This document shows positions 1 through 51,500 of a stretch of 64,000 bases of DNA, piece after piece. The position numbers were made by a program, and so were the translations under genes. The notes beneath the pieces were generated by a model. The model searched no databases, was not told the origin of the DNA, and saw nothing but the letters and a program-made list of their open reading frames with translations. Position 1 is the stretch's first letter, and the number at the start of each line of letters is the position of its first letter. The stretch is from a virus (taxonomy: Duplodnaviria; Caudoviricetes). Location: IMG/VR virus record IMGVR_UViG_2808606549_000001, positions 63,535-127,534 of that record; one strand, given 5' to 3'.

Positions 1-602
1 TTTAGTGAGGCATGAAGAATGAAACTGCCTCCACAATATTGAGCCGTCTCTTGGCAATTTCCTTTATCAGTCCAAGCCAATTTAAGACATCCAGCAGCTA
101 GGCTACCAACAATATCATCCTCAGTGTCATGAACAAAAACTGTTCCCTTTTTGCAACCAGGCATATCTTTTTGAAGAATGTATTTCTTCATCTTTTGTTG
201 ACGATTGCGATCCAATATATATGGATAATTTCTTTTGTGCATCTCGTACTCTCCATGAAATTTGCTTTTTATCGTATATTAACTTACTGGATTGTTGCTA
301 AACCTGAAGGTTAGTGTGCTGCAAAACTTTCGATTTACCGCAATGTTTCCTTCAAGCCAACAATTCTCAATCTTTTTTCGCGTCGCATTTTCTAGAAAAA
401 ACAAGTCAAATCGAAAATCTCTACCTGAATAAATCATCATCTCGTACTTTCTTTCTATATCATGATATGTACGATGCACATTAAACGAACCTTCATCATA
501 TCTGTATGATACATTGTCTACTTCCATCACAAGATATCCGTCACTCCATACTTCTCCTCTAATCATAGTACCTCCTATTTTTTCTCTCATGAAATACGCC
601 TT

Positions 603-938
603 TTATCGGACTGCCAATGCGAGTAATGCCGCCTTGCAAATAGCTTCTGGGGCAGTTGAACCGTATTGTTTGCTGGACTTCCAAACATTCTCTTTAAGTG
701 TTAGTCGGCATGTATATTGCAAGTGTTGATACCCTTCATTCATATCAGAAAGATTGATCTCGCGAGTAATAAATTTTTCACTTAAAAATACTTGCCAAGC
801 GGCTAACAAATCTGATGAATATGGACCAGGCTTAAAATACATGCTTTTCGTTTTATCAAAAACATAATACTCAATAAGTGAATCCAAATATCCACCACAT
901 TCTAACTTTTCAATCTCAATCTGATTTATCTTTAACAT
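603..938 (-). CDS. Phage protein, probably ABA-sandwich (BC1872-like) domain
   Basis: YSSDLLAAWQV ... TAPEAICKAALLA pattern; the stop codon lies inside the junction motif at 589-606. Confidence 0.55.
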   Translation of the reverse strand: MLKINQIEIEKLECGGYLDSLIEYYVFDKTKSMYFKPGPYSSDLLAAWQVFLSEKFITREINLSDMNEGYQHLQYTCRLTLKENVWKSSKQYGSTAPEAICKAALLALAVR

Positions 939-1040
939 CTCCTTCTTAGATAAAATTCGGCTTTCATGGGAATTTTCAATTTAGAAAACCCTTGATTTCC
1001 AACGGTTTTTAAAACGTAATTTTCCCATGAAAGGTTGATT

Positions 1041-1193
1041 TTATCGGAACGACTCACTCGGATGCTCAGGACGGCCATCACAATATTCGCAAAGTTCGTC
1101 ATCACACTTCTTTTCAAGCCACTCATCACATCGAGGGCAGTATTTTGTATCATAGTAATCGGAATACTTGATCAAATCGTAATGTTCGCACAT
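1041..1193 (-). CDS. Small Cys-rich protein, 50 aa (MCEHYDL...SESFR), not in the ORF track
   Basis: Translated by hand; GGAGG RBS; CxxC pairs; the stop TAA is part of the junction motif at 1027-1044. Confidence 0.6.
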   Translation of the reverse strand: MCEHYDLIKYSDYYDTKYCPRCDEWLEKKCDDELCEYCDGRPEHPSESFR

Positions 1194-1384
1194 ATTAGAT
1201 CCTCCAATCAATAGTCATGGCCTGAAGCATCGTCGTATCCGTCAATCTCCAGAGACTCCCATTCGCACCCACATTCTTTGCATACTTCAATTCCCTTGAT
1301 AACCTTTGGTTTCTTGGTGCTTCCGCAATTTAGACACTCATCTTTAAAATTCAATATTAATTCTCCCGTTTTCATGTTTTATAT

Positions 1385-2467
1385 TTATGTGTATTTGATA
1401 CGATGAGTGAAGCATTCTTCATACAGTGCCGTAAAGATATCTCTTCCTCTATCGGTGGGCGAATCCTTATCTTCTTTTGATAACAATCCTTTGCTATCCC
1501 ACATGGCGAATACCTGACGAGCAGCACCAAATTTCCTGCCTTCTTTTTTAAAAGCTTCAGCATCCTTGTCTTTGTCTAGTGCAATAATGATTTGTACATC
1601 TAAACCAAGATTCTTAATCATATCAACCTGGAAGTCACTTATACTATCTCCACCAATTGAGATGCAATTTCTAAACCCATACTGAGTAGCGAACCAGCAA
1701 CTTTTCTCACCTTCAAAGATGATTACTTCTCTCTTCTCTAGGATGTAGTATAAGGCTCGGTGCCAATTGTACCATTCGATGATTTTTATGTAGTTGTATA
1801 GATATAGGAACTTGTAAATATCTTTCTCTTTATAGTCTTCAACAGTCGTGCGTCCCTTTATTGAAATAATCTCTCCATACTGATTATGTATTGGATAGAT
1901 GATACGTTCAGAATAAAGGTCATATCCGACTTGGAACTCTACCTGGGTCTCATAGTTTAGTCCATCGTCTAAATATTTTTTGTGAGGAAACATGATGTAT
2001 TGATTCAAAATCTCATCGTCATAAGCCTTGTTCTCGGTCATTGGAACAGCGGATTTCTTGCCTCGTTGCTTCCTAACCTGTTTAAGCCATGCTAATGGAT
2101 CTTCCTGCTTCTCCTCAAAGAAACGGCCTTCTATGTATTCCTTGTACCCCAGGCGATCGCATATCCATTTCTTCGCTCGTGGGATATTCTGAAGCATCTT
2201 CGTCTCATCTTCAATGTCGAAAACTATGTAAGACACAAGGCCGTATATATCAATGTTATCCATGCCTCTTGATCTAACTCGACACTTTAAATGCTCAGAC
2301 AAGTAAACTTGCAAGGATCTCTTGTTGTCACTATGAAACTTGTCTGGAAGTTGTGCTTCGTATCGATTAGTGGATAGCCTAATGTGGTTGCAATCCAATT
2401 GAAGCAGTAGTTCTTCAACCCTGTCTTCTTCGTAAATCCTTTGCTTTATTTCCTTGAGGTCGTTCAC
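1385..2467 (-). CDS. dnaG: Phage DNA primase (TOPRIM)
   Basis: IIFEGEKS and IIALDKDKD TOPRIM motifs; YPIHNQYGEIISIKGR; adjacent to the helicase. Confidence 0.88.
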   Translation of the reverse strand: MNDLKEIKQRIYEEDRVEELLLQLDCNHIRLSTNRYEAQLPDKFHSDNKRSLQVYLSEHLKCRVRSRGMDNIDIYGLVSYIVFDIEDETKMLQNIPRAKKWICDRLGYKEYIEGRFFEEKQEDPLAWLKQVRKQRGKKSAVPMTENKAYDDEILNQYIMFPHKKYLDDGLNYETQVEFQVGYDLYSERIIYPIHNQYGEIISIKGRTTVEDYKEKDIYKFLYLYNYIKIIEWYNWHRALYYILEKREVIIFEGEKSCWFATQYGFRNCISIGGDSISDFQVDMIKNLGLDVQIIIALDKDKDAEAFKKEGRKFGAARQVFAMWDSKGLLSKEDKDSPTDRGRDIFTALYEECFTHRIKYT

Positions 2468-2489
2468 ATGACCTCCTCCATATTAATAT

Positions 2490-3983
2490 TTAAAACATTG
2501 AGTTGGACGTTCTTTGCATCTGAAGATAAGCAACTTCTTTGAATGAGTTAATTCCATAATTTACTTCATACAAAATTTGCTCATCAGTACCCCCGTTACG
2601 GTTCTTGCTTATGTAGATAATCATATAGGTTTTATCGGGATCTAATTTGTATTCTTTCTTTTTCCATTTGCCGTCAAATTGATCCTTTTCCCAGTTATAT
2701 GCGAAGACTTTGTTTTTGCCATCTGGGTATTCATCTGCATAGAGAAGTCTTCCCATCAACACAACTGAAGCAACTTCAACAATTTCAAGAGATTTACCGA
2801 TTGCGCTTAAATCAAGGTATCTAAATTCCTTACCAATCTTCAACTGAACTGTTGCTAGCAAGCCGATATTATTTGCTTCCGGTTTGATGCAGTTAAAAAT
2901 CTCTTGTGCTGCCTCGCTAAATGCTTCCCATCTCGCAGCCTCTTTTGAAGAACTATCTGGCTTGAATGTATCAAGTAGAGCGTAGTTATAATTCAAAGGC
3001 TTCAATAGTTGTAATCGAGTAAGCATGTCATCTACTCGATATTTCTTCATATCAAAAAACTTGATGAGATCCTTATTATACTTACCAAGCCATTCTTTGG
3101 CTTCGTTTAATTTTTCTAAAGTGGATTCATCAAATTTACCTTCGGATAACTTCTCGCGATTTATTGCTTTATTTAAAATTTTAGATGCAACCGTAGCTAA
3201 GATAAGATTTCTTGATTTCCAGACATTCTCCTCGTTTGTAAACATCATTCCTTTTTCCTGATGCTCAACCAATGACAAGATGAACTTCTCCATTGAAATT
3301 GAACTCTTGCCTACACCAGAGGAAAGAACTAGATAAATTAGTTCTCCCTTTCTCCAACCTTTAATCTTCTTACTGAGTCGAGGCGAGTCATGTAATGGCA
3401 ACCCCATTGACTCTCCCTGGTTCATCTTATCAATAGCCTTATCCAGATCATCGAGGAGATTGTATTCAACCACTTCACCACAATTGACGTTAGCGAATGC
3501 CTTGCCAACTTTATGTTGGAAATAAGCCTGTAACTGTTTCAGCGTCATCTTGGCTAATTTAAGCATTAACTTCTTGTTGCTCACGTCAATCAAAGATTCA
3601 GCCTGAAACAACCTTAAACACTCAAATTTTTGAATCTCGGAGAAATGGTATTCATCATTGTCTTTGTTCTTACTACACTCTTCCTTTAACTCTCTGATCG
3701 TCTCAAAACCGCCATATTCGTTGTACTCTTCAAATAGAGACTTCTTGCCAATCTCGGTTGGCTTTGACGTCAAATATGAATATGTTGTTGTGTCATCAAA
3801 ATTACGAATGCCACTTGCGTACATTTCCTTGCCCTGAATGTAAAAGTAATACCAAATTTCTTTTGTAAAGGTCTCTTTGGTCACATTACTAGAGTTGTAC
3901 TTTTCATATAGTGATGGAGTTGACCAGAGATAACCAACAAACAAGCCTTCGTGCATTTCTGATGGAGTAACAAACTCATCCAA
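2490..3983 (-). CDS. DnaB-like replicative helicase (SPbeta YorI-like)
   Basis: Walker A SSGVGKS; ALLDTFK; TVQL; SKNRNG arginine-finger motif. Confidence 0.88.
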   Translation of the reverse strand: MDEFVTPSEMHEGLFVGYLWSTPSLYEKYNSSNVTKETFTKEIWYYFYIQGKEMYASGIRNFDDTTTYSYLTSKPTEIGKKSLFEEYNEYGGFETIRELKEECSKNKDNDEYHFSEIQKFECLRLFQAESLIDVSNKKLMLKLAKMTLKQLQAYFQHKVGKAFANVNCGEVVEYNLLDDLDKAIDKMNQGESMGLPLHDSPRLSKKIKGWRKGELIYLVLSSGVGKSSISMEKFILSLVEHQEKGMMFTNEENVWKSRNLILATVASKILNKAINREKLSEGKFDESTLEKLNEAKEWLGKYNKDLIKFFDMKKYRVDDMLTRLQLLKPLNYNYALLDTFKPDSSSKEAARWEAFSEAAQEIFNCIKPEANNIGLLATVQLKIGKEFRYLDLSAIGKSLEIVEVASVVLMGRLLYADEYPDGKNKVFAYNWEKDQFDGKWKKKEYKLDPDKTYMIIYISKNRNGGTDEQILYEVNYGINSFKEVAYLQMQRTSNSMF

Positions 3984-4010
3984 ATACTTTATTGAGATAA
4001 TACCACTCCT

Positions 4011-4604
4011 TTATAGTAAATCTGAGATGTCCATTTCATCTTTTTTCTTTATGTATGCATTTTTGTTGGTTGAAAGCGAAACGGAATCTCGGACGTCTGA
4101 ACTTGTTTCTGTTTTTGCTAGTTCATTGACTTTCTTTTGTCGTTGAACCCTCTCTGCATGTTCCTTTGCATCGGCAAGATTATTGCGAACTATCGCTAAA
4201 CCATACCTTAATTCTAAAAGTTTATTTTTAAACTCGCCTTTCTTTTTATCGATTGCTGTCACTATGCTTTCACGACAATATTCATATGTATAAGCAATTG
4301 CAGGATAAGGTATGCCCTTCTTGTAGTTCTTCTTCAACTTACCGAATAGTTGACTATCGTTTCGGAGATCCTCAAGAATCGGGTAAAATGAACTTGGGAT
4401 CAACTGATAGCTACTCAAACCGTGAACATCAGCTATCTTTATGGCCAACTCCAACTGTTGCTCACGCTCTTGTTGCTTGAAGCGTTTATCTTCTAAGTAG
4501 GCTGCATGACACTTTTCTTTGTGGTAATGCTTCTTGTTAGGTTCCTGGATCATTTCTGTCTTTTCAGATTTCGCCTCACACCAATAACATTTCACAATCG
4601 CCAT
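4011..4604 (-). CDS. Zn-finger-containing replication-associated protein (YorH-like position)
   Basis: N-terminal CYWC...H..CH; immediately upstream of the helicase. Confidence 0.5.
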   Translation of the reverse strand: MAIVKCYWCEAKSEKTEMIQEPNKKHYHKEKCHAAYLEDKRFKQQEREQQLELAIKIADVHGLSSYQLIPSSFYPILEDLRNDSQLFGKLKKNYKKGIPYPAIAYTYEYCRESIVTAIDKKKGEFKNKLLELRYGLAIVRNNLADAKEHAERVQRQKKVNELAKTETSSDVRDSVSLSTNKNAYIKKKDEMDISDLL

Positions 4605-5347
4605 TCAGTTAGCATCACCTCCTTAATCACGCTGCAATAATCTCATGTGCCGCTGAGTTTCCTAAGTTCATCTTCAACTATTTTGAGCAATGTTCCTGGC
4701 TCTCCTATGGTGCCAGTTTCTTTCCATTTCTCCTCTTCATGCTCGAATACCCATCCTTCCGATGACACCTGTATATTGAAAAGGCCGAATGGATATGCGT
4801 ATTCATTCGAAGCTGTTTTTTGGAAGCCACGACTTTTTAGGTATCTATTAATGAAGTCTACAGTCATTGGGTATCCTCCTTATAAAATGTCTTCTTTTAA
4901 TGGATGCTTACCCCTTATAATGGTCTTCGGTTGTTGTACAAGAATATATAAATTTCCCATCCCAATAACTGTAGTAGTCAACTCTCCCCATAGACCAAAC
5001 GCCATATGACTTTCCATGCTCAGGATTTGGAATCTCGTCTAGGCTCATAAAAATATTGCCTTGCTTGTAATAAGCTTTAGCACACCACAATAAGTTGACA
5101 ACTCTGAACCAAGGTAATTCCTGCGATACTTCTACTGCGCGAGGATTGCCTTGATCAATCATAAAGTTTGCAACAAATTCTCGGATCTCGGTTTCGTAAC
5201 TCAATCCCATCACCCCGAACGTATGTTTGACCTTATTATACCCAAACATACGTTCGTAGTACATAGGTTTCCTGCAAATTCTATATCCTGGATGATTATG
5301 ACTATACTATTTTTAATTATTTAAAGTCAATATGTATTATTTATTTA

Positions 5348-5860
5348 TTATGAAAAACGGATATGTTTTTTCTCTGGAGCAAACTCAGCTCCCTCAACCA
5401 CCTGACCGGACTTCAGGGCCTTCAGGATGGCGTCTGAGACGATTTTATCAGGCTGTGGGACGCGATATGCAGCAGGAATCTTAGAGGCGTCTGTAATCAA
5501 TACTGAAGCGTTATTCTTTTGAATACGCACATTGAAAAGCGGAGTCTTAAGTTTTTCAATACCAGCGAGTTCAAGCATTTGCTGAGTATACAATTTAAGA
5601 CGCTCATGTTTATTTTCTAGAGTGGTGCGATTCTTCTTTAGTCGATCTTCCTCAGTTTTGTATGCTGCGATATCACCCTCGATATTTTTGAGGAACTTGG
5701 CGATGTTTTCAACCTTGTTCTCAATTGTATCCTGGATAGCATCAAGGTTGTCGATGAGCATTTCAATTTCATCTTCTTCAATGCCCTCTTCATCTAGAGC
5801 ATCGTTAGAATATTCAAGAAATCGCTTATAGTTCTCAGTTAGTTCGTATAAAGATGGCAT
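5348..5860 (-). CDS. Siphovirus Gp157 family protein
   Basis: SLYELT start; coiled coil KVENIAKFLKNIEGD; IPAAYR...LKSG.VEGA C-terminus. Confidence 0.85.
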   Translation of the reverse strand: MPSLYELTENYKRFLEYSNDALDEEGIEEDEIEMLIDNLDAIQDTIENKVENIAKFLKNIEGDIAAYKTEEDRLKKNRTTLENKHERLKLYTQQMLELAGIEKLKTPLFNVRIQKNNASVLITDASKIPAAYRVPQPDKIVSDAILKALKSGQVVEGAEFAPEKKHIRFS

Positions 5861-6164
5861 TATTTACTTTCTCCTTTTCAATCTAAATATTTAATTACTC
5901 TTCTTCTTCTTTCTTCCCTCTTGGAGTTTACGCTTATGATCATCGCTCATGGTACGCTTAGGAGCATCTACTTTTTGCTTCTTCTTTGCTCTAAAGGAGA
6001 CTTGGCTAAAGTCTAATTCATATGTATATTGACCGTCATTAGAAATTTTTGTTGGTATCGCACCAATTTTTTTTAATTTCGTTTGAATTGTCTGTTGAAA
6101 CGTAGATACTATCCATTTCTTATTGGCGTCATCGCATTGTAAGACAGTTTCTCGCTCATAAGCA

Positions 6165-7040
6165 TTATAATTCATTTTTTATTCCTTTCAGAATTTCTTG
6201 AATTTTCATTTTAGTTCTAGTTTCCAGATATTCAATGAGCTTCGTTTCTGAGTATGATTGATGCTTTGTTTTTGTGTAAAGAGTCTGATAGGGGATGTTT
6301 GTCGCCTTATGCAAATCGTCTAGACTATACTGGGAATTGTATATATTTATTCTGATAGTATTTGTCTTATTTCTAAACTGCTCCTTCTTGGGTATCCAAC
6401 AGCAATTATTAGGCTCATAATTGCCATTAACGTCAATACGTTCTATTGTTAATTCATCTGTATATCCGTTTTCTAAAGACCAGTCTTTGAAGTTGGTAAA
6501 TCCTTCATCGCCAAGCCAGTCTGAAGATAATATAATACCTCTTCCCCCATAGTGCTTATAATTTTGGGCATTCTCTGAATAGCACCTTTTTTTCATACCT
6601 TTATATATTTTATATAACCTGGTATGAGCCATCCCATGTTTTGTTGATCTTTCAGTTGTGAGTTTTCGACCTAGACAACCGCAACTTAACGTATTATTCA
6701 AAGATGAAGAAGTGTGGACTTTTAAAGAACCACATTCGCATTCACACATCCAATATGGCCTACTAACATCTTCTTTATCTAATTTGTATATCACCTTTAA
6801 CAATCCAAATATTTTTCCCGTTAGGTCTAAGCAGCGGTCTTTTGCTATTTCCTTTCGTAAACAACCACAACTCCTTGTGTGTCCACTTTTAATATGTGAA
6901 CCGGAGACAGTCAATATAGTCCTCTTATCACATTGACACTCACAAACCCATTCGATTTGCTTATGCTTATTACTCGCTGCTCTCTTAATTACTTTTAAAT
7001 TCCCGAATACCATACCAGTTATGTCTATAAATTTTCCCAT
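6165..7040 (-). CDS. Free-standing HNH homing-type endonuclease with repeated CxC/SCGC modules
   Basis: DITGMVFG.L repeats, SCGC, YGGRGI, LTIERIDVNGNYEPNNC. Confidence 0.85.
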   Translation of the reverse strand: MGKFIDITGMVFGNLKVIKRAASNKHKQIEWVCECQCDKRTILTVSGSHIKSGHTRSCGCLRKEIAKDRCLDLTGKIFGLLKVIYKLDKEDVSRPYWMCECECGSLKVHTSSSLNNTLSCGCLGRKLTTERSTKHGMAHTRLYKIYKGMKKRCYSENAQNYKHYGGRGIILSSDWLGDEGFTNFKDWSLENGYTDELTIERIDVNGNYEPNNCCWIPKKEQFRNKTNTIRINIYNSQYSLDDLHKATNIPYQTLYTKTKHQSYSETKLIEYLETRTKMKIQEILKGIKNEL

Positions 7041-7267
7041 AATCTCTTACGTCAGCACCGTCCCCCCATGAAAATGAAATTTTATTTGAATACGCACTCT
7101 ATCATCAGCACAGCAAACGTCACGCCAATAAATAATCCAACTATAAAACCATTTAGAAATACTTCTCGCTTGTTTAGTTCGTGATGATTTGAATTATATT
7201 TCTGATCCTCAATAATCATCATCGATTCTAAGTCATCAAATTTATCAGTCTCACTCATAAATATCAC

Positions 7268-7936: not shown

Positions 7937-9176
7937 CCTCGCACCTCGTTATCCACTCCGCTTACATTACCTTTAAGCGTTCAATTTCTTCTTCGAGTTT
8001 ATTTACCTTCTCAACTAGCTCATTGATCTTATCCATCATTTCTTTGTTGTCTGGGAGCCGTTCGTCAGTTCCGTTACCAAATACACCGAATTCAATCTTT
8101 TTGAACAATCTCAAAATCATCTTATCGTCTCCTCTGTTTTGGCCCCATCGTAACACCCTAAGCATACGTGATAACTGTAAAACTCACCATTCTGTAGTCC
8201 TGTGTGATATGCGCTGCCTGAGCCTTTAGGGATCATCATAGAGCAATATAAACAAGGCCAGGACTGTTTGTTCCTCTTCTGGATTCTGACTCTTAGAATA
8301 CGTGTCTCTGCATATGATTCATATGTATATGCTTGACCTTGATACTCATCATTATTTATAAATACATTCTTCATTTATATGGTGACGAATCAACTCCTTA
8401 GCAACAATATCAAAGGCCACCCAATAGCCCAATTAATCAACATCTTCCACAAAGGCATTGGGTTAATAAATTCATCAATCGAATCTCTTTTAAAGTTGAT
8501 GTATATAAAACCCATGATAATCAAACCGATTACCATGTAGGCGACAATGATTAATAAAGTGATAATCCAAATCATATAGATAAAAACCTCATTTCATCGG
8601 AATTAGTAACCACACGACTTACAATAGCCCTCAACGAAAATCTTGAAATTCACATACAATTCCTCAATAGACTTTGCAGATGTGCTAGTTCTGGGATTCC
8701 CCATAAATAGTGAAAGTTTTATATCCTTATTTAATCCATTACTATCCATGTACACAGAGAATTCCTCAAGTAGTTTTCTAAGATAGTTGCACTCAGCCTT
8801 ATTGTCATCGAATAAATATGCCGTTTCTATTCCAAGACAATACTTCTTTTCATCTCGATCATATGTAATATCTATATCATTCATGGAATACAGGTGAGCG
8901 TCTATTCCAAGTAAATTACCCCACGATGTGACTCCCCAAATATGCTTTAGTGCTCCGCAGTTATACTCATTGTCTTCATAATCTGGATACTTCCTTTTCC
9001 ACCAATACACTTGCCATTTTTGTTTAATTTCATGTGTTCTAACAGTCCATTTAATATCTAAATATCTAATCAGTTTCCTAAGAAGTTTCAATTATTTAAC
9101 ACCCCATAAAACTATAATTTCGTAACCTGTATCTGGTATGATACAATAATGTAAAACGCACTAAGGGTGATACAAA

Positions 9177-35583: not shown

Positions 35584-35598
35584 AAGGAGTGTATTTCA

Positions 35599-36703: not shown

Positions 36704-36706
36704 ACA

Positions 36707-39234: not shown

Positions 39235-39249
39235 AGGTAGGTAAATCAA

Positions 39250-41738: not shown

Positions 41739-42128
41739 TTAGTTTGTTAGACCCATACTAATTTTTAGAGCATTATCCACAAGTTCCATATCTACATCAT
41801 TAATTTTTGTTACTTTCTTAATCAATCTTCTTTTGTCAATTGTCTTAATCTGCTCAAGCAAAGCATAACTTTCTCGATCTAGATTATTATTTTCGGCACT
41901 TAGATAAACATGTGTCGGCATTTGCTTTTTAACTTTTGACGTAATTACGCATACAATGACCGTAGGAGAGAATCTATTGCCAATATCGTTTTGAAGTAAC
42001 AATACTGGTTTATTGCTGCCTCCTTGTTCTGCTCCAATCACAAGCGACAAATCAGCTAGAAATACATCACCGCGTTTATAGGTCTCATTATCTACTCTGT
42101 ATGTAGTACTTTCTTCAGTGGCCAGCAT
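41739..42128 (-). CDS. mazF: MazF/PemK (NdoA-like) endoribonuclease homolog, orphan
   Basis: RGDVFLADL..IGAEQGG..PVL..QNDIGNRFSPTVIV..ITS...PTHV...LEQIKTIDKRRL. Confidence 0.9.
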   Translation of the reverse strand: MLATEESTTYRVDNETYKRGDVFLADLSLVIGAEQGGSNKPVLLLQNDIGNRFSPTVIVCVITSKVKKQMPTHVYLSAENNNLDRESYALLEQIKTIDKRRLIKKVTKINDVDMELVDNALKISMGLTN

Positions 42129-42206
42129 CTTCTCACCTACTCACTAGGTATTATTTTGTTTTAATTTCTAAAATCATTATATTGCATATGTTACTTAATT
42201 AACAAC

Positions 42207-42220
42207 CGAACACACGTTCT
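42207..42220. promoter_or_regulatory. LexA (Cheo) box between the divergent mazF and rsfA genes
   Basis: CGAACACACGTTCT. Confidence 0.75.
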
Positions 42221-42396
42221 ATTTCACATTTTTATGGCTATGACAAGCACAATTTTATTGACTCCAATTTATCTTGACACCTCCGTGCATCTGTGTTAAA
42301 AACGCATTGTTTGTTTAATTAATGTATATTTGATTACTTAACCGGATATAAATGATATGAAACATAAAACGACAAACATATGGTGGAGATGATGAT

Positions 42397-42897
42397 ATGG
42401 AAAGAAAAGATGCCTGGACTGAACAGGACGATTCAAACCTTGCCTCTACTGTGCTTTCTCACATAAAATCAGGTAGCACACAATTAGCAGCTTTCGAAGA
42501 GGCGTCTCAAATCATTGGTCGAACTGTATCGGCATGTGGTTTTAGGTGGAATAGCGAGTTAAGGAAAAGATATGATGACTCTTTAAAGGAGGCAAAAGAA
42601 TCGAGGAAACAGCTTAGTAAGGAAGATCGCCCACAACGAACCAGACGCTCTGTAGAGCAGCCTGAGCCAATTGAGACTATTGATATGTATATGGTCTTTG
42701 ATAATCTTCAGGCGACTCTAGAGGCCGCTACAGTGGCTATCGCTCAACTCAAGAAAGGTTACGAACAGTTGCAGAAGGAAAATGAGCGACTTAATAAGAG
42801 GCTTATGGAGGTTCCAAGCGAGGATCTAACAGCAATTCTCAAACTTGTGGAGCAGGCAAGAAAACTTGGTGTAATAAAAGAAGGCGCAGCTTCCTAA
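42397..42897 (+). CDS. rsfA: RsfA-family sporulation transcription regulator
   Basis: RKDAWT..DD..LA..VL.HI..GSTQL.AFEE....GRT..ACGFRWNS.LRKRY. Confidence 0.88.
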   Translation: MERKDAWTEQDDSNLASTVLSHIKSGSTQLAAFEEASQIIGRTVSACGFRWNSELRKRYDDSLKEAKESRKQLSKEDRPQRTRRSVEQPEPIETIDMYMVFDNLQATLEAATVAIAQLKKGYEQLQKENERLNKRLMEVPSEDLTAILKLVEQARKLGVIKEGAAS

Positions 42898-42918
42898 AAA
42901 GGAGGCTACGCCTTTTCT
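42876..42918. terminator. Bidirectional terminator after rsfA
   Basis: AAAAGAAGGCG.AGC.TCC / GGAGGCT.CGCCTTTT inverted repeat between convergent genes. Confidence 0.65.
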
Positions 42919-43200
42919 CATTCGTCTACCCAATCGATATCTCTAATTATTGATTCCATTTCCTTCATATTTAATTGGTATGCTGCTTCCCAACAATAAA
43001 TAGCATTACGCTTTAGGCACATTGCCATCTCGTCTAATTCACTACGCGTGAGATCCCTCATCTTATTAACTGTAAATAGTTCAGCCATCCTCTGATGAAT
43101 AGGCAGTACATTAATGTTTTGCATCGTTCATCTCTCCCCCTGTTCTTATGCTTCATAATATTCAGGAGAGATTACTTTGTTACTTCTTCAGATAATTAAA

Positions 43201-43422
43201 TTATTCACTTTGACAACTTTCTTCTTCAACCAATATGAAAATTTCATCTGTTGGGCGACTGGTTCGAGCAGCAATCCTTAACGCCCATTCTAAACTAGGC
43301 TGACTCCTCTGATTTTCCCATTTGTTGTATAGAGTCTTATTGACACCTAGAAAAGAAGCAAAGTCGTTTTGAGCCATTTTGGATTCGAAACGAATATCAC
43401 GCAGCCTATTTACTACTTGCAT
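43201..43422 (-). CDS. XRE-family HTH regulator
   Basis: NRLRDIR...QNDFASFLGV...YNKWENQRSQPSLEWALRIA...DEIF. Confidence 0.85.
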   Translation of the reverse strand: MQVVNRLRDIRFESKMAQNDFASFLGVNKTLYNKWENQRSQPSLEWALRIAARTSRPTDEIFILVEEESCQSE

Positions 43423-45373
43423 AACAAAAACACCTCCTTACACAATAAATATGTCGATGTGACATACATTATGTAAGAAGGTGTTTATGTATATTTATTT
43501 CTTTTGCTTTTATACAAAGAACAAATAGATCAAACCAATAACAGCCAAACAAAACAAAGTAAGTGCTGTTCCAAGCATAACATTCCTTTGATTCATTTTA
43601 ATCTTCCTCCCCACGAAACAATTATTTCATTCATCGCATTCTTGGCAAATTGTCCATCCACAGTCTTCAACAAAAGTTATTTTTCTTTTTTGTGGTTTGC
43701 CGCATATTCCACAATGTCCACCAACCTGAAGTTGATCCAGTTTATAGAACCCTAATTTATTTAGAAATTTCCTAATCATACACTTTCATTCCCCTCATTA
43801 AATGGACATTTTATTGTGATACGAAAACTAAATGAATCCCATACCATTCGATAACTAATTTGTCATCTGCCGACCAAGCATCTATATACTTGCCAATATG
43901 TGCCCAGTCCTTACATTCATTTTCTAAAAGATGTCCGCACTTCTCGACATAATAATAGTCGGGATTTCTGCCATGTGAGACGCTGCTATCCAAAATATTC
44001 TTTATTGTTTCTTTTATCGTCAATCTTTCCACCTCATGAAAGATACGTTTTATTGGATTTCTAAGAGATCAGATGGACCATGAATTACACCGAAATACAT
44101 ATGATCACCGTCTCTTTTGTATCTCGCAACTACTTTATCAAACGGGAATTCATCGGAACGTGACTTATAACCTTCAAGGTAACTGACAGCTACTACTTTG
44201 CGCTTCTCGTCCACATAGATCACGTTCCCCATCTCATAATCATCGCGCTCAAGAATATTGCAATACTGGATGAATACTACTTGTTCGCCCTGCTTCAGTT
44301 CGTTATGCAGCAATCCATTCACTCCCTATGAAATATACCTTTCGTTGGAACAAAATCAGTCTGCTGTTATACAGCAATTTTACTTTTACAATTATCGCGT
44401 AGCAGTTTACATTGTACTTTGTCGTCTCGGCACATAATCATGAAGGACAACATTTCAAGTTCATCATCAAAGGTATATACGGCTTCCGTCTTATGCCCAT
44501 TCCACCATTCAGTAGTCATCACCTTGTACATATGAACACCTCCTGTTATATAAATTCCAAGCAAATTAATCTTTTATTGGATCTGCAAATGCAGTTAGCG
44601 TATCACCGACTGACTTCATGCTTGCCTGAAACATCCTATTTACTCTATCTTCATGTTCTTTCAATTGCATTTTTAGTTTAATATTTTCATTTTCCAATTC
44701 AAACATTCTTTCGAATGCAGTTACTGTTGCTTTGGCTTGTTTATATGCTTCAAACATCCAATCGTCCATATTTATATCCCTTTCTGTTATTCAGATAAAA
44801 TCAGACTTTCATTGTGTTTAGATATGATCGAACGTCGTTCCAGTTTCGCGATGAATTGCAATAATTTCATCTTTTACTCCAATGAGATGATGCTGCAACT
44901 TATCGTACTGGTTGTTATATTCCACTTCTGTTATTTGCCTTCTTTTCAATTGCTTTGTCAGATCGTCAATCTGATTTCCAATGATATCTCTTTCTTTTTC
45001 AAGATCCTTCAATTGTTTGTTCATACTGTTATCCTCCTTCTGTTATACAGCCTCATATTCATCCTTAGAAACTATTTCATAAAAGGAATTTCTTATGCTC
45101 GACATTCTGTATTCTACAACATACATCGGATCTTTCATCTTAATAGGCTGTTTACTGATAACAAACAATGTACCAGTCACCTTGACTACTTCGCCGCTGT
45201 TATAAGCCTCTACAGCTTCATCGTGCGATAGGAATTTGATTGGCTTATTCACTAATCCATCAACCTCCGATATGTAATTGTCATATTGTTATAAGTATAT
45301 TTCATGTTATATGTATGAGTAAAGCAGAATTTACTATTTTGCTTATAAACTCTGCTCTACCATTAGGCTGCTG

Positions 45374-46474
45374 TTATACAGTCTTTTCATCTTTCTTACC
45401 TATTGCCAACGCTCCCTGTAGAATTTGAATCCGCGTCTTAACACTATCTGCTGATGCAGTTTTATTGCTCTTTGTCTTGCCGTACATGGAGCCAGGAGAC
45501 TGTACTTTGATGAATGCGGCCAGAACATCTCCAAACACTTCAGGACGGTCTGTGGAGGCTACAGCGGCCCCTGCGAGACCAATAATATCTGCCTTCTTCA
45601 TTACCTTTTTGCGCGTCTTCTCATCGATCTCCGAGAACGCTTGACCGAGAAAACTAAACGTTGCTGTTATAAGAGATCTCTCATCGTCACTAAGCCCATT
45701 TATGCGAAGGTCTAAAGCAATTTCTCTAAGCGCCTTACTCCCGATATCATAGTGGCGTCCTGTTATAACAGCAATCATCTGCAAAACCATTTCTTGATCC
45801 TTAAACCCTTCGCGCTGCTTATCAGTGATTCCGGTCATTTGAATGAATGGCGTATCAATCAAAGAATTGATATAGTCAAGGTTTTCCGTGCCCAGAATGG
45901 AGCGAATCAATTCAATGCTTGAGAGCGAAGTTCCACTATTAAGCCTGCGAAACATTTCATCAATTTGATCTGGTGTCAGTTTGTCGTACTGATACACGTT
46001 GACGTTGCATTCCTCTAGAATTTCCTGAAACTCAATCGGTAGTTCAGAAAACTTCTTTCCTGCTACTTCGACTCCGAAGATGGGACGAAAATCTTCAGTA
46101 AAAGCAATTTGGTCATTCATGAATGGGATAATTGCTCTTTTAAAACGCTGCTTGCCGTCGATGCACCACGTTACATCATCATTTGATTTAACAGCATAGA
46201 CAGGCGGTACAGGATAACCCAACAAGAAGGATTCGATTAATTCGCTAACCTGAAAATCAGTCCATCGCAAATTCCGTTGAACAGTCAAATCAAAATTCAG
46301 AGAGTCGGGATTTCTACCGATGTTTCTAAGGCTTCTAGGCTGTGCCTGCGACTTGTTGAGGCGTTCAGCCTTAATGCGTTCCTTAAGCGTTGCATAGCCT
46401 CCAAACTCCCCATCGCCTTGATTTGCGTTTTCCTCTTTTACTTCCTCATCCAAGAATAACTGTTCCTGTACCAT
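45374..46474 (-). CDS. DUF262 (ParB/GmrS-like) domain protein
   Basis: VQRNLRW...SELIESFLLGYPVPPVY, IDGKQR, EMFRRLNSG..LS. Confidence 0.85.
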   Translation of the reverse strand: MVQEQLFLDEEVKEENANQGDGEFGGYATLKERIKAERLNKSQAQPRSLRNIGRNPDSLNFDLTVQRNLRWTDFQVSELIESFLLGYPVPPVYAVKSNDDVTWCIDGKQRFKRAIIPFMNDQIAFTEDFRPIFGVEVAGKKFSELPIEFQEILEECNVNVYQYDKLTPDQIDEMFRRLNSGTSLSSIELIRSILGTENLDYINSLIDTPFIQMTGITDKQREGFKDQEMVLQMIAVITGRHYDIGSKALREIALDLRINGLSDDERSLITATFSFLGQAFSEIDEKTRKKVMKKADIIGLAGAAVASTDRPEVFGDVLAAFIKVQSPGSMYGKTKSNKTASADSVKTRIQILQGALAIGKKDEKTV

Positions 46475-48503
46475 TTATAATCACTCCCTGTATTGTTTAT
46501 TTTATTCGTATTTCATTGCCTCTTTGAGGGGGACTAGTTCATTGTACATTGTAACTATGTATAATTTGCCGTCGATACGTATGCCTTTTTTATAGCGCAT
46601 GGGCTGGTAACTCCCCTCTGTTATGGATGATCATTCATAAGTGGAGCATTTCTAGTTTCATCGATAAACCATACGATTGCTGTTATATATATAGCAATCA
46701 CAATTGACCAAATCATTTTATCACCATACTTATATTTAATTTTTAATTTATATAAATGCATTATTTCATGGACAATTGTACGGTGCTCTTAATGTTAACA
46801 TTTGCTCTTTTGTTTTTGGTTTGAATTAATTTTTTCACTTCATTCTCTGCCTGCCACTTATCAAAAGCAATAACTTCTACAATATCAGACTCAACAACCT
46901 TGCTTGCCCAAACCAACTCATATTCGACCATGAATGTTTTTTGTACGCCGTACATATGACGCCGCCTCCTCACTTTATCAAAACTTACTTAATTGACTTT
47001 AGTTTTAGTCTTCTATCAATCAGCTTCAATTCATCTTCGAAAAACTTCACTTGCCCCATATTTCCTTGTTCCGTATGAAATTTGACTGCCCCTACGGTAT
47101 ACCATCGCCTGTAAATTAAGTCGCTTTTATAGTTAATCGCCATTACAGAATTGTATGCTTCAGATCCTTTGTACTCACGGTCAATATATGTCATCTGTTA
47201 TTCTCTCCTTTTCTATTGTTCTGTTATGCAGAAAATATGCTTTGTTCTTCTACACTGTTGTTAATGGAGTCTGCCAGCACATTTTCTAAAATAGTTCTGT
47301 TATTAATGTAATACGCCTTTTTCTTTGCTCCTTTCTTACGGAAATAGTAGTTACCATTAGATTTTACAATTTTTCCATCCCATCCACCATAAACGATAAA
47401 TTTATCTTTCATCTTCTCGCAATATTCAAGAGCAATTTCTTCTTCTTTATTTTTGTCATAAATCGCATGGTATTGGATAGCAACTTGAATTCCTTTAACG
47501 TCAATTTCTTTGAGTAGATTAATCATGGCATTGACTGTCTCTATCTGTTGTTCATTCGTTCGTTTATCGTTCGGACTAAGAGTTACATAGGACATATCCC
47601 TTTCCCCACATGAAGAGTTGCACCAGAAGAATAAGTCCCAATTATCATTTCGATAGCTAATTTCTTTATTTTTATACTGATAAACAATGAATTGTTCATT
47701 AAGCAAGTCAACCAATTTTTCAACTTTTTGCCCACATTCCTGCTTTGCTTGCTCACATCTTGCAATCCATTGTTCACGTGTCATGCTGTTATATTCTTTG
47801 CTATTTTGTTCTTTTTCTTCTTCGGAATAGAAGTCGGAAATCCTCAAAGAATGGACACCTAATGCAGCTACACCATTTTCAATTGCTGCAAAATCCAATG
47901 CCGACATATAGCTTTTATCCTCTTTAATTACGATCATTTGTTATCGCTCCTTTTATGTATTATTAATTTTTATGAAAACCTTATTTCATTCGAGTTTCAA
48001 TGCATACCAGAAATGCACACTTCATATTCAATGCCTTCATCCGTGAACAATTCACCTGTTTTATACTCTCTCTTGAGTACATCAAACTGATATAACGTTG
48101 CCAGTGTATCAAGGTTCTCAACACAATTGGCGATCTTCTTAGCCATCTGTTATCACTCCATTTTTTATTTTTAATGCTTATGAAATTCTGATTTCGTGGT
48201 CCGTTAAAAGTTCACTTCTACATTCTTGTCAAACCATTTTTTAAAATGATTTTTGAATTGTTTTTTTGATACAACAATTTCACCATTTTTATTTTCAACA
48301 TACGCAATATTATTTTCATAAGCATAAGTATAGAGTCCAATAATTTGATTAAATAATTTATAACAATCATCCAAGGATGGGCATTCCCAAGCTGCGCCGA
48401 ACCCTTCTTTCTTCTCTTTGATCCAAATAACAAAATTCATTTTTATTCCTCCTTATTCCGATGAAATCCAGTTTTCATTGTGTCGTCTCTTCCTTATATA
48501 TAC

Positions 48504-48556
48504 ATTATAGCATTGGTTTGCTTATTAACACAATACATTTTTGTATTTTTTATATT
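48504..48556 (-). promoter_or_regulatory. Strong sigma-A promoter with shared upstream element
   Basis: TTGTGT ... TGCTATAAT plus TATAAAAAATACAAAA. Confidence 0.7.
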
Positions 48557-51500
48557 TTTTTTGGATAGATCGGTTCTATCCTGGCTGTTATATGCGTTGC
48601 TGTTATACGATGAAATACTTGTTTTATCGCCTGTCATACAAATTCCTTTGAGTCCTGAACGAATTTCTCGAATTCCTTTTTGGGCATCGATTCGACATTA
48701 ACACAGTATTTGTCTTCTCTATCGAAACTTAAAACATAATCGCATGATCTTTCAAGAGACATGCCGTTAGACTTGTGAATTTTAGCAGCTTCATTCATAG
48801 CCAGGATGCGATCTTTCCATTTAAACATCGACAACACTCCTATAACATTAATTGAACATCGTCATTTTCATAGGATAATAATCCCACATATCAATGAAGT
48901 TAATGTATGAATTGAAATCGTCACATTCAATGTTCTTGCAGATAAAAACGCTTGCTCTCCTTCAGATTCTATAATCATTTGATTAGATCCGCAAGACGGA
49001 CATAATACCTTAAATAACATATAACCACACTCCTTTAATTGTTATTGTTATGTATCTTATTGGATGTGCTGTTATATAGTCCATGATAACATAAGCCGAA
49101 TACAGTGGACTATACATGGCTTGCTGTTATGGCAACAGTGCAACACATTCGCCTGTTTGAATATGATGAGCACGTTGCAAGAAAGTTAGAGTATGATCAT
49201 ATTGACCAGACATAGCCTCTTCTATTTGCTCCTCTCTCCATTTGAAATAAGATTCCTTGTCATTAACTTTTACGTCTCCATTCAATACTTCGTCAATACA
49301 GGCTTGTGCGTTATGGGCAAACCATTCTCTAGTCATTTGTATCGTATCTTGGGTTAATTCCACATTTGCAAACTTCATATTTTTGACTCTCCATTTCAAT
49401 TTTATTTTAACTTTTAATATGTTGGATATTCTTTGATTTTCATTTTTGCGATTGATTTCAAAATTTCAGCTTTGCACGTTTCACAGTGATAGTATTTTTC
49501 ATTCAACATTGTATCATTCATAAGTTTCATTTTGATTTTACATTTTGGACATTTCATTTTTATTCCTCCATTTTATTTTATTTTTATAACCCTTCAAAAT
49601 AAGCATTTTATCGTCTGTTATTTGTTTGACTTACTCTGTAGAGCCAATAGACCATGAACAACAATTCCTTGTTAAAGTGTAAATAGAATCATATCAATCG
49701 CCTTTGTATTGCCAGTCGAAAATTCTTCAGGGGTGCCGATTGTCCAACCATCGGAATACTTGATAAGGTAATAATTTCTCGTGTGGCGTACCCCTTTGTG
49801 TATTGCTTTACATTTTTTCTTTGCTTGTGCAAGTGTCATTTTATCATCCCTCCAACAATAATATTCGCCGTAATGCTTGCAATCCTCATTGACACACATC
49901 TGAGCCGATTCGTGACCATTCTCACCATCCAAGTATTCAGCCGTTTCCGTTTCCTGGTTACAATGCGGACATTTCATTAGTTATCGTTCCTTTCTTATTA
50001 TGCGTTCGATACGTGACTGTTATAATACAATTTAATGTAATGTTCATTGATTATTTCATATGCTACAGGCGAGAAATGATAAGCGATATTATTCTGTTCT
50101 TGCTTGCTCATTTGTTCGATAAAACTCATCATATCATCGATTTCATCGAATGTTTGCGAGTGGGAATTTTTAACGTTCATATCCGATGCATGAGACAAGG
50201 AGAGAACCAATTTATCCTTGCTGTTATACACTTTTAGTTTATTATCGCTGCTAATCTCCATTTCATACACGGTACGTCATCCCCTTTGCTGTTATAGGCT
50301 TATAGCCTTTATGGAGCCGCACAACATGGACTGTTATGCGGTCTAAAAGATACAAGCTGTTATGCAATTTGTATTGTTTTTTCTCTTGGATTTAATCCAA
50401 TCTTCAATTCGCTTGCATAACAACGAATAGTAATGCTGGATTCATCCATACTCATAAGACTAATTTGCGAGTACTTTTCGTTCAATAAATGTCTATATTC
50501 CATGTCAACCTTGTTATAAGCTTCCCTTCTTTTGCTTGCTAGTTCGTGATTCACATCATGATTATCAATCAGATTGTATCCCCTATTGTCGGCATGAACG
50601 CGATAACCGTAAAACATGTCTAATACTTCAATGGTGTCAAAGTCACAATTTAGATTAGCGTTAATCCATTCCGTAATGCTTTCTTTTGTGTAATCGGTTT
50701 TGGAAATATCCAAATGATTTAATTTTCGGTTATATGGTGGCTCAATAACTTTTTTATTCTGCCACTTTTCGTAACTTATATTATTTTTTCGATATTCAAT
50801 GTATAAATCACGGTTAAATTGTTCGGCTGCTTCGCGTTTTCGTTGATCTTCAAAACTAAAAAGGAAATCAATGCGCAACGCCCATTCAGAAATAGTTTTT
50901 CCTTTTTCGTTTCTTCTGTATCCTCTTCCCAACTCGATATAGAATTCTTCGCCTAACTTATTAGTGAATGCTGTTCTGATTCTGTAATTTCCTACGTTGC
51001 TGTTTTCATTGGCTTCATAATCCATGCCAGCACCTTCAAAGTACAATGTTTTCATATTTATCATGCTCCTTTTATTTGTTATTGGTTTATTTTGTTCAGT
51101 TCGAAAATCCATTGTTTAGTTATTAAATTTAATTTTACGCTGTTCAAACCATCTAGGCTCAACATCGAAAGTACTAAATACATCATTTATGTCTGGAGTC
51201 TCAAGCGTTTGAAGAGTGATTTTGTCATTATGGTATTTATCGCCAAACTCAATATTGGTAATTACATATTTATAAAAATTTGATTCCTTATTATGGCTAA
51301 ATACAGTTCCAACGGCTAAAATATAGGGCAAATCATTCAAGGAAAAAAGTTTATTCATTTTTATTGGCTCCTTTAATAAATTTTACTTTCAACAATTTCA
51401 ATTTCTTCATCCGTTTGCTCGTCACCTTCATAATAAATATCTACATGCTTACCGATGTAATACTTTTGTGCTTGTTTAAGCGTCATATTATGCGGAACGT

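Follow-up and report, generated by a model that had tools for sequence, protein, structure and literature searches.

A two-armed palindrome lies between small genes

The window analysed here is a 64,000-nt stretch of the 127.5-kb record of a large SPbeta-like phage, and sites are given in window coordinates. Many of its small genes are separated by an inverted repeat, ATRAAA-N6-TTTYAT, of which there are 23 exact copies, at the coordinates given in an earlier note on this DNA; across 100 dinucleotide shuffles the count averaged 0.29 and never exceeded 2, in line with that note's expectation of fewer than one chance match. Allowing up to one mismatch raised the count to 45 (shuffle mean 5.22, maximum 10). 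There are therefore 22 one-mismatch copies, a class that the note had recognised but put at about 18, and since the shuffle mean is 5.22 about five of the 45 may be chance matches. The whole record holds 33 exact palindromes, every one with a 6-base gap: in a scan of gaps from 0 to 15, N6 gave 33 copies and any other spacing 0 or 1, while everted arms occurred at most twice and direct arms 0-4 times. A logo of 63 sites also supports the CC...GG flanks of the extended consensus proposed earlier. These data confirm that the strict 18-base palindrome between small genes is real and not a product of chance.

The upstream gene's stop codon is the TAA within the arm at 13 of the 45 sites, three more than had been noticed before. 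Six of these are exact copies, at 589-606 (centre TACGCC), 1027-1044 (GGTTGA), 7068-7085 (ATGAAA), 11594-11611 (TTTCCA), 29463-29480 (CCAATC) and 44036-44053 (GATACG), and seven carry one mismatch, at 11374-11391, 12403-12420, 12841-12858, 13102-13119, 25225-25242, 43613-43630 and 43797-43814. Further exact junction copies lie at 255-272 (TTTGCT, between two minus-strand genes), 950-967 (TTCGGC, the mirror partner of the site at 1027), 8580-8597 (ACCTCA), 10112-10129 (TCCGTC), 15822-15839 (GGTTCA), 23787-23804 (GTATGT), 24962-24979 (CTGTTA), 28408-28425 (CAACTC) and 47972-47989 (ACCTTA), and at 26453-26470 (CTGACA), where the ORF at 26237-26470 starts with the ATGAAA arm. The exact copy at 14090-14107 (TTGATT) falls in the overlap of the ORFs at 13641-14117 and 14104-14703. 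One-mismatch copies occupy further junctions at 10631-10648, 12629-12646, 26219-26236, 27233-27250, 29230-29247, 44328-44345, 46752-46769 and 48180-48197. Another, at 33455-33472, is at the first junction below an SPBRE-like box at 33724. Of the remaining one-mismatch matches, the one at 9106-9123 has typical flanks, the context of that at 9469-9486 is ambiguous, and that at 45079-45096, inside a called ORF, is doubtful; those inside a gene at 18222-18239 and at the start codon of a plus-strand gene at 39250-39267 are probably chance.

Gene context in the window was taken from our own crude gene caller. By this measure 21 of the 23 exact window copies are in same-strand junctions and two inside called ORFs, with 17 of the 22 one-mismatch copies likewise in same-strand junctions. 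In the whole phage, such junctions hold 31 of the 33 exact copies. A gap of 10-35 nt separates the motif from the start codon that follows it at 25 of the 45 window sites. Exact copies are absent from the window at 1045-7067, 15840-23786, 29691-44035 and beyond 48627, which fits the earlier statement that the primase-helicase, yopQ/R-agr, tubulin-ATPase and yonO blocks are free of the motif. Across the genome the palindromes are almost confined to 40-115 kb, and the late operon is nearly devoid of them. Promoter-like sites number 48 against 54.9 expected, and no minus-strand terminator-like site was found between 23317 and 34500; the data support the view that the genes at these junctions lack promoter signals of their own.

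The palindrome is common to the SPbeta-like group, with 14 copies in SPbeta, 38 in Perkons, 21 in Tsamsa and 13 to 64 in other relatives. The gap scan of six other genomes gave 13-64 copies at N6 and no more than four at other spacings. Same-strand junctions hold 55 of 64, 27 of 30, 12 of 13, 29 of 38, 21 of 25 and 10 of 14 sites in relatives, and SPbeta's own annotation places 13 of its 14 palindromes between genes. In five relatives the motif shows no preferred orientation with respect to the coding strand.

Centres are unique within a genome and appear to be kept at a position

The earlier note had described a centre that varies from site to site, and no centre is in fact repeated within a genome: identical pairs numbered zero in seven independent genomes, for which the null means sum to 4.15. 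Self-complementary centres are also missing (0 of 217; null 4.56, P = 0.0097). In the relatives G003 and G002, three consecutive centres are shared in order (exact-chain P = 0.0035), with unrelated genes of unequal length between them. A longer collinear chain joins G001 and G004, comprising 16 centres of which 12 are exact (null maximum 6), with an exact-centre chain of eight (null maximum 4). Of the 15 intervals that these joints delimit, ten are of unequal length in the two genomes and show no similarity by tblastx, and blastp between flanking gene pairs at the joints gave no match in 30 of 32.

For the phage studied here, which has no close relative, the best shared centre chain is with G003 and is not significant (P 0.07-0.09). 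The exact junction copies at 27504-27521 (GTCAGT), 28860-28877 (CTAGTA) and 44795-44812 (TCAGAC) have the same centres as G003 sites at 55165, 55903 and 58330, and five of six bases agree between the one-mismatch junction copy at 27730-27747 (TTCAGG) and G003 55619, and between the exact one at 29673-29690 (TCTCCG) and G003 56924. Over all distant pairs, centre sharing was not above chance (20 vs 15.8, P = 0.16), and the centre identity of 0.95 is partly circular because pairs were picked by matching centres. The centre seems to be retained at a given joint across relatives while being unique within each genome, and the Tn916-like indifference to centres suggested before finds no support in this pattern.

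Some homology breaks coincide with palindrome edges

When SPbeta, phi3T and Goe11 are compared, each ordered pair has between two and six homology-block ends that coincide with the edge of a palindrome, whereas the null model gives a mean of 0.13-0.20 (P <= 0.01 in all six comparisons). Identity begins precisely with the palindrome's first base at positions 83687 and 113663 of SPbeta. In the G001/G004 pair, 2 of 14 block ends are at a palindrome edge (P = 0.004). Coincidence of homology breaks with palindrome edges is above chance, although most block ends lie elsewhere, palindromes accounting for only 2-6 of the 46-59 per pair. Several observations speak against an exchange role. The contigs analysed showed neither strand exchange nor circles or empty joints. 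When junctions are counted as wholes, enrichment is weak (Fisher P 0.012-0.52), and those with a palindrome are wider. Goe11 is apparently recombinant exactly at the yorD/yorE site, yet the partner centres differ at two of six bases. Three hybrids of phi3T and SPbeta from the laboratory show seven switches between the parents, of which one maps to a palindrome-free interval of 41 bp and the other six map only to shared blocks of 1.4-13 kb.

Candidate recombinases

An intact Xer-like recombinase gene lies outside the window at genome 15208-16227 (PF00589, E 3e-22), and the nearest solved structure to its product is the XerA-like 4a8e. A palindrome is found 2-62 bp past the stop codon of this gene in seven genomes, and 402 bp from it in SPbeta and phi3T. 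Constant arms with diverged recombinases are unusual for an enzyme-site pair, and the candidate recombinases are merely ~25-34% identical between phages, yet the arms are unchanged. The Tsamsa genome speaks against the Xer-like recombinase as the enzyme: it has 21 ATAAAA-type sites, yet a palindrome of different sequence follows its tail-operon recombinase. In favour of the Xer-like candidate, PMC9703825 describes for Tyrovirus a 6-bp-centred inverted repeat directly after the equivalent gene as a putative attP.

The YopP/SroD-like recombinase-fold gene on the minus strand at 56051-57112, which had been named as the possible cassette shuffler, is a weak candidate. Pfam detects only an N-terminal SAM-like domain in its product, no sequence relative was found in the PDB, and no palindrome adjoins the gene within 7 kb downstream, leaving that role without specific support. 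Its orthologues in G001-G004 pass PF00589.

Operators, passive homology or exchange joints

A dimeric phage protein on the arms could instead silence or time early genes, making the palindromes dispersed operators or roadblocks in the genome arms transcribed by host RNA polymerase and gene swaps a mere by-product of conserved sequence. The strict two-fold symmetry, the scarcity in the late operon and the absence of orientation bias would all suit such a role, as would the two exact copies flanking the SPBRE-like box at 48528, one 50 bp away at a gene junction (48461-48478, TCCAGT) and the other 56 bp beyond it on the opposite side (48610-48627, TACTTG). Of the 10 SPbeta genes listed for MrpR peaks, 4 carry a palindrome no more than ~250 bp away. 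Candidate binders are the second repressor SroE/YopQ (DndB-like), SroD/YopP and the HU-like protein beside yonO; YopQ- and YopR-like proteins are present in six of six relatives, as is the HU-like protein, and bioRxiv 10.1101/2025.11.27.690993 describes the role of SroE as unclear. The MrpR-like protein, offered earlier as a possible binder, was rejected: the window has three SPBRE look-alikes, including those at 33724 and 48528, but the MrpR/SroF box is a different, asymmetric sequence bound by a monomer, and all ten MrpR ChAP-seq peaks are at SPBRE. A protein blind to the centre would also leave unexplained why centres are unique, asymmetric and collinear with unrelated genes between them, and why breakpoints fall exactly at palindrome edges. 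We regard operators as rather unlikely. Somewhat less likely again, the palindromes may be passive linkers, identical islands of 18-24 bp that serve phage annealing or repair proteins as homology patches with no dedicated site-specific enzyme. Breaks at palindrome edges and identical islands between unrelated flanks agree with this, the switches in the laboratory hybrids could be crossovers inside long shared blocks, a Sak4-like annealing protein (YorG) is annotated in SPbeta, and Lambda Red is reported to recombine diverged sequences (PMC2327257). Passive homology, however, needs neither a palindrome, nor an exact 6-bp gap, nor avoidance of symmetric centres; different joints share just 6 bp through the arms alone, and the copy beside the recombinase gene in nine genomes would have no explanation.

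Two further explanations carry little weight. The position of the motif shortly before the next start, often with the upstream stop inside it, would suit an mRNA hairpin or protein site controlling translation or processing, but ten sense-strand folds gave only 0 to -4.8 kcal/mol with the arms paired in four, z-scores were -0.9 to +1.2 for eight of the ten folded sites, and 23 of the 33 sites of this phage would have an A-C mismatch in the mRNA. Orientation is irrelevant in relatives and centres are kept though downstream genes differ, making an RNA-level element very improbable. A true integron, the strict form of the integron-like cassette system first proposed, in which an IntI-type integrase would act on attC-like sites in folded single-stranded form and Pc would drive the cassettes, is if anything even harder to credit. 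The lack of promoter signals in the genes between sites would suit such a system, but integron attC folds span 57-141 bp, a size that the phage sites of 18-24 bp already contradict. No attI or Pc was seen beside an integrase, the joints are fixed, ordered and common to phages of 100-170 kb, and the proteins with an integrase fold resemble Xer or MrpR.

The homology breaks, the unique asymmetric centres and the collinear centres with unrelated genes between them point to joints over plain operators. What stands of the mobile-unit proposal is that the sites are real, that they have recombinase-type geometry, with an inverted arm on either side of a 6-bp centre, that they lie at junctions of genes lacking promoter signals of their own and that in relatives they border units that have apparently been exchanged; integron mechanics and the named enzyme find no support. 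We give an even chance to the reading that the palindromes are fixed joints for accessory-gene exchange among SPbeta-like phages, putatively worked by an Xer-like enzyme. We infer protein binding, strand exchange, the need for centre matching and the identity of the enzyme. The two 6-bp arms would be binding places for a two-fold symmetric protein, with a tyrosine recombinase of Xer-like type forming a dimer on them and exchanging strands across the centre. Productive exchange would require a partner with the same centre, which would be the corresponding joint of a related phage, either co-infecting the cell or already resident in it. A pair of these exchanges would replace whatever gene or genes two joints enclose without disturbing gene order, the stop codon upstream or the ribosome-binding site downstream.

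A palindrome with a fixed six-base gap at gene junctions

The palindrome ATRAAA-N6-TTTYAT, which the earlier note had placed at accessory-gene junctions, is real: the window contains 23 exact copies against 0.29 expected, and 45 copies against 5.2 expected when up to one mismatch is allowed. Junctions between genes on the same strand hold 21 of the 23 exact and 17 of the 22 one-mismatch copies. At 13 of the 45 sites the TAA of an arm is the stop codon of the upstream gene, and at 25 of the 45 the start codon of the next gene lies 10–35 nt beyond the palindrome; these junction, stop and start counts for the window rest on a custom, crude gene caller. The coding-strand logo is (t)cC-r-ATrAAA-N6-TTTyAT-g-G-r-a, with the right flank continuing into the ribosome-binding site, and the conserved unit measures 18 bp, or ~24 bp counting the flanks.

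The whole-genome scan that the note had proposed alongside this junction check covered the full 127,534-bp virus record, of which the window is the second half. It returned 33 exact palindromes, and 66 with at most one mismatch. The spacing is strict: a gap of six bases gives all 33, and with any other gap between 0 and 15 the whole record has one copy at most. Nearly all copies lie at 40–115 kb of the genome, within leftward arms of small genes, and the rightward late block after the yonO homologue contains two exact copies. At 949–1045 of the window, palindromes 950 and 1027 stand in mirror orientation on either side of a 59-bp imperfect palindrome, and together form a 46-nt inverted repeat; this resembles a joint-to-joint unit that lacks a gene. 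The window's right end carries a perfect 24-nt inverted repeat (63326–63349 and 63977–64000, 627 nt apart).

The phage and its genes

The phage encodes a YonO-type RNA polymerase of 847 aa (57545–60088) with 52% identity to that of SPbeta; no match above 64% identity to it was found among IMG/VR and species genomes. The nearest relatives of the phage are prophages in Brevibacillus, Paenibacillus, Neobacillus and Cohnella. No close relative was found in the collections searched, and megablast against the phage collection returned nothing. The 22-kb loci surrounding yonO are poor in palindromes. Genes for an HU-type DNA-binding protein (60318–60590, plus strand) and a PIN-PhoH fusion (60655–61968, plus strand) directly follow the yonO homologue, and the HU-like gene is the best kept small gene among relatives, at 36–55% identity.

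Accessory genes on the minus strand at 40154–41482, 45374–46474 and 52760–53608 carry DUF4379 zinc-ribbon/DUF2726, GmrSD_N and GIY-YIG domains and likely represent defence or homing functions among the cassettes. A phage gene for a PemK/MazF-type toxin (41739–42128, minus strand; Pfam E 2e-29), also present in five of six relatives, is notable because arbitrium phages have been reported to act on host MazF (PMC10769878).

Related phages carry the same palindrome

We counted exact palindromes in related phages, with the reversed pattern as control (control counts in brackets). There are 14 in SPbeta (1), 16 in phi3T (2), 16 in Goe11 (2), 38 in Psychrobacillus phage Perkons (2), 6 in a Clostridium phage contig (2) and 21 in Bacillus anthracis phage Tsamsa (0). 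Among related IMG/VR records, G001 to G005 hold 13, 30, 64, 25 and 11 (controls 0–1), and G006 to G009 hold 8, 5, 3 and 10 (controls 0–2). In seven of seven genomes the six-base gap gives 13–64 palindromes and any other gap at most 4. Same-strand junctions account for 55/64, 27/30, 12/13, 29/38, 21/25 and 10/14 of the copies in six relatives. Orientation relative to the coding strand is skewed in the present phage alone (23 to 6) and balanced in five relatives.

Published annotations place the sites similarly. In SPbeta's own annotation 13 of 14 palindromes are intergenic, with the arm TAA serving as stop codon at three, and two are annotated as stem-loops in the SPbeta record; the annotation of Tsamsa gives the same junction layout at three of the four palindromes inspected. 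In the literature searched, of which Lazarevic et al. 1999 and Brady et al. 2023 were not part, no description of the dispersed palindrome was found, and neither 'motif' nor 'palindrom' occurs in the text of the Perkons paper. Brady et al. 2023 (Cell Host Microbe) is said to deal with SroE/SroF binding sites.

Unique, asymmetric centres, kept in order in two pairs of relatives

Within each of seven independent genomes no six-base centre is repeated in either orientation, where the null means total 4.15. Among 217 centres there is no self-complementary one (null 4.56, P = 0.0097).

Two pairs of relatives also keep centres in the same order. G003 and G002 have three consecutive centres in common (exact-chain P = 0.0035). 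The genes between these matched joints are unrelated (HExxH versus DUF262-like, and HTH versus unknown), the intervals are unequal in length, and only 22–28 bp around each palindrome can be aligned. A collinear chain of 16 centres, of which 12 match exactly, links G001 with G004 over ~44 kb (null maximum 6); with exact centres only, the chain is 8 (null maximum 4). In 10 of the 15 intervals between these joints tblastx similarity is absent and the lengths are unequal, for example 948 against 169 bp, and 30 of 32 flanking gene pairs have no blastp match; collinear similarity at the protein level covers about a quarter of the region. For flanks, arms and centres the ungapped identity is 0.29–0.37, 0.80–0.86 and 0.95, respectively, the last figure being inflated because the pairs were chosen by centre. 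In a count free of that selection bias, collinear partners exist for 16 of the 25 sites that G001 has in the region and for 16 of the 28 in G004.

For the present phage itself the centre evidence is thin. Window sites 27504, 27730, 28860 and 29673 line up with G003, two centres being exact and two matching at 5/6, and the two phages are otherwise dissimilar over the 6 kb; this chain is not significant (P 0.07–0.09). Over all distant pairs, centre sharing is not above chance. At least 112 viral stretches in IMG/VR, many on 80–216-kb contigs, contain the window 18-mer with centre TCCGTC. These form 28 left-flank and 29 right-flank clusters in which families sharing both flanks dominate, and the flanks found in the window are singletons. 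At a few of these loci (IMG/VR L239 onward) one left flank is joined to different right flanks, a pattern that is ambiguous.

Some homology blocks end at palindrome edges

We aligned relatives, as the earlier note had suggested, and homology blocks were found to end at palindromes more often than placement by chance would give. Among SPbeta, phi3T and Goe11, 2–6 block ends per ordered pair fall at a palindrome edge, against 0.13–0.20 when palindromes are placed randomly in intergenic DNA (P ≤ 0.01 in six of six comparisons), and at least seven different palindromes mark homology boundaries. The palindromes at SPbeta 83687 and 113663 match phi3T from their first base onward, and nothing is alignable leftward. 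Between G001 and G004, 2 of 14 block ends lie at a palindrome edge (P = 0.004). Palindromes account for just 2–6 of the 46–59 block ends per pair among SPbeta, phi3T and Goe11; most ends there fall in junctions without a palindrome, and junction-level Fisher tests for breaks at palindromes are weak.

SPbeta 99497, phi3T 89339 and Goe11 90553 are one palindrome, its centre reverse-complemented in phi3T (TTATCA vs TGATAA), and at 90553 in Goe11 a phi3T-like left flank meets an SPbeta-like right flank exactly across the palindrome. At the yorD/yorE palindrome, Goe11 joins partners with centres unlike at two positions, and this joint does not fit strict centre matching. In laboratory phi3T × SPbeta hybrids the crossover intervals are too long to decide whether palindromes are used.

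The palindrome is distinct from the MrpR operator

The earlier note had offered as an alternative that the palindromes are operators of an MrpR-like protein. A homologue of MrpR (YopR/SroF) is encoded at 20884–21855 (PDB 9rd5, E 6e-30, and 8a0a, E 7e-28; Pfam MrpR domains), with a YopQ-like gene that matches DndB at 21865–23208. SPBRE, the known MrpR operator, is like the palindrome a repeated A/T-rich element of SPbeta-like phages, and the protein that binds it has a recombinase fold. It differs in being 15–26 bp long, asymmetric, monomer-bound and located at about ten promoters (PMC10516654; bioRxiv 10.1101/2025.11.27.690993). MrpR ChAP-seq in SPbeta gave ten peaks, each with SPBRE (PMC10516654), and in phi3T a monomer binds the SroF box, an asymmetric A-tract sequence of 26 bp (bioRxiv 10.1101/2025.11.27.690993). 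The element that we derived as common to seven of seven tested SPbeta target regions is not the palindrome either, and the 33 copies at junctions contrast with about ten early promoters. Since both the published SPBRE and the derived SPbeta core are unlike the palindrome, the operator alternative is unsupported, and we rejected MrpR (SroF) binding as its identity.

The window does contain three copies of a 27-bp asymmetric, SPBRE-like box, ACACAATA-nn-TTTTTGTATTTTTTATA, at 33724–33750, 48528–48554 and 52673–52699. These look like the SPbeta SPBRE core read on the opposite strand and because of this likeness are probably operators for the MrpR/SroF homologue of the phage. Inspected by eye, the palindromes at SPbeta 113663 and 132746 (phi3T 105166 and 125051) have a right arm that runs directly into a sequence resembling the phi3T SroF box on the opposite strand; a joint may therefore have a repressor box immediately beside it.

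Candidate recombinases

The tail operon, which lies outside the window, encodes an intact Xer-like tyrosine recombinase (genome 15208–16227; PF00589, E 3e-22), whose nearest solved relative is XerA-like and in which the HxLRH box and the tyrosine align. A palindrome follows its stop codon at +4 bp. The same holds at +2 bp in G003 and, with one mismatch, at +2 bp in G002, +51 bp in G001 and +62 bp in G004; in Perkons and Goe11 the distances are ~19 and ~26 bp, and SPbeta and phi3T carry a palindrome identical to that of Goe11 at +402 bp. An intact Xer-like gene has a copy beside it in nine genomes and is a candidate for the enzyme that would act on the sites; Tsamsa speaks against it. There, the repeat after the tail-operon recombinase differs in sequence from the 21 dispersed ATAAAA-type sites, which counts against this candidate. 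The recombinases of these phages, moreover, are only ~25% identical to one another while the arms stay unchanged, and this divergence likewise weighs against it.

The arrangement in this phage (+4 bp) and eight relatives resembles that of Tyrovirus gp50, a Xer-like recombinase whose gene precedes that of the tape measure and has, directly after its stop codon, a 6-bp-centred inverted repeat read as a putative attP (PMC9703825). For gp50 a single such site is described, and no dispersed copies. The function of the tail-operon recombinase is called unknown (PMC9703825, PMC13245101).

The enzyme suggested in the earlier note is the YopP-like protein encoded at 56051–57112 (minus strand). Only its N-terminal domain is recognised in Pfam, even with loose thresholds, and the gene has no solved relative and no palindrome nearby; orthologues in four relatives match the integrase model. 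Between this gene and an HTH_36 gene (54605–55330), four tandem repeats of ~45 nt (ATCCGGTTTT..GGGTAAATATCA.GTTT) at 55594–55770 look like iterons or an operator array.

Comparison with known systems

Inverted arms around a six-base centre, the geometry of Xer/dif-type sites, are found in seven of seven genomes; the distinct XerC and XerD arms of such sites are absent, the arms here being alike (ATRAAA / TTTYAT). The palindrome was also compared with the B. subtilis dif sequence, and the host factors ComK, CodY, Noc and dif were provisionally set aside as its identity.

Heterospecific lox and FRT sites have identical arms and differing spacers, and since only equal spacers recombine they allow cassette exchange without internal deletions. 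The unique, asymmetric centres of the palindrome would suit the same logic of spacer variants. The lox and FRT sites differ in being engineered, with 13-bp arms and 8-bp spacers, and one natural palindrome joint contradicts strict spacer matching. In integrons, too, promoterless genes are each bounded by a recombination site, the likeness that the earlier note had drawn on. Their attC sites are long folded single strands of ~57–141 bp with paired R/L boxes; the conserved unit here is 18–24 bp, and a true integron is excluded because the sites are too small. No IntI-type integrase with attI and Pc was found; the genes with an integrase fold resemble those of MrpR, YopP and Xer, and none heads an array. 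The proposed integron-like mechanics are not supported. The stoperators of cluster A mycobacteriophages are likewise small sites, present in dozens in short intergenic gaps and overlapping start or stop codons, but they are asymmetric, bound by the immunity repressor, oriented with transcription and without a site-specific centre. We rejected this identity, as the site is a palindrome, its orientation is balanced in five relatives and MrpR peaks lie elsewhere.

Promoter or terminator function was rejected as well. The segment 20000–34500 has 48 promoter-like sites where 54.9 would be expected and 3 terminator-like sites where 6.1 would be, and none coincides with a palindrome. The PeSL elements of T4-type phages are also small repeated intergenic motifs in plastic accessory regions, shuffled among relatives, but they comprise a strong promoter of sigma-70 type and a terminator hairpin and recombine by homology (PMC2839356), unlike the 18-bp interrupted palindrome, which is without terminators; with neither signal enriched, a PeSL cassette was dropped too. 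YonO starts the late operon at a single site upstream of yonK (PMC5467207), an operon that the palindromes avoid, and on this ground a YonO promoter was rejected. The pdif modules of Acinetobacter plasmids are comparable in that many Xer-type sites per replicon flank accessory genes and delimit units that recur in different replicons. Their XerC and XerD arms are unlike each other, the sites alternate in orientation, and host enzymes are thought to be used (PMC6449649, PMC13141974, PMC7399989). The palindromes, in contrast, have alike arms and a centre of their own at each site, lie inside phage operons between stop and ribosome-binding site, and have phage-encoded candidate enzymes.

Discussion

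We consider the chances about even that the palindromes serve related phages as fixed joints for exchange, each joint with a label of its own. Each palindrome has the geometry of a tyrosine-recombinase core site, and productive exchange would need equal centres. Such a requirement would explain why the centres are unique, never symmetric and kept in order, and why the genome does not delete parts of itself. These properties of the centres suggest equal-centre recombination indirectly, with one counter-example. More tentatively, the system could be a natural cassette exchange of SPbeta-like and Tyrovirus-type phages, in which all sites have the same arms, the centres are addresses, and a phage-encoded Xer-like recombinase, made late in infection, crosses only equal addresses of co-resident relatives. 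Accessory genes would then be swapped at any joint with their order, stops and ribosome-binding sites kept, and without internal deletions.

Other readings each cover part of these observations. The symmetry of the site and its confinement to the early arms would suit a dispersed operator, but the centres are then left unexplained, and we think this reading rather unlikely. That the palindromes are passive linkers providing homology strikes us as improbable: breakpoints would be accounted for and the palindrome itself would not. An element acting in the mRNA as an RNA hairpin is unlikely because the sites fold weakly and their orientation does not matter.

Should the centres of labelled joints work as addresses, genome engineering would have in these sites a ready set of orthogonal recombination targets. 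Labelled joints would also give the spare tyrosine recombinases of these phages a job. Phage genomes are mosaics, and the origin of clean exchanges at gene boundaries is an old question, usually answered by random illegitimate recombination followed by selection or by short linker homologies. A scaffold of labelled joints would be a concrete, testable alternative for phage mosaicism, with SPbeta and phi3T in B. subtilis as a tractable model.
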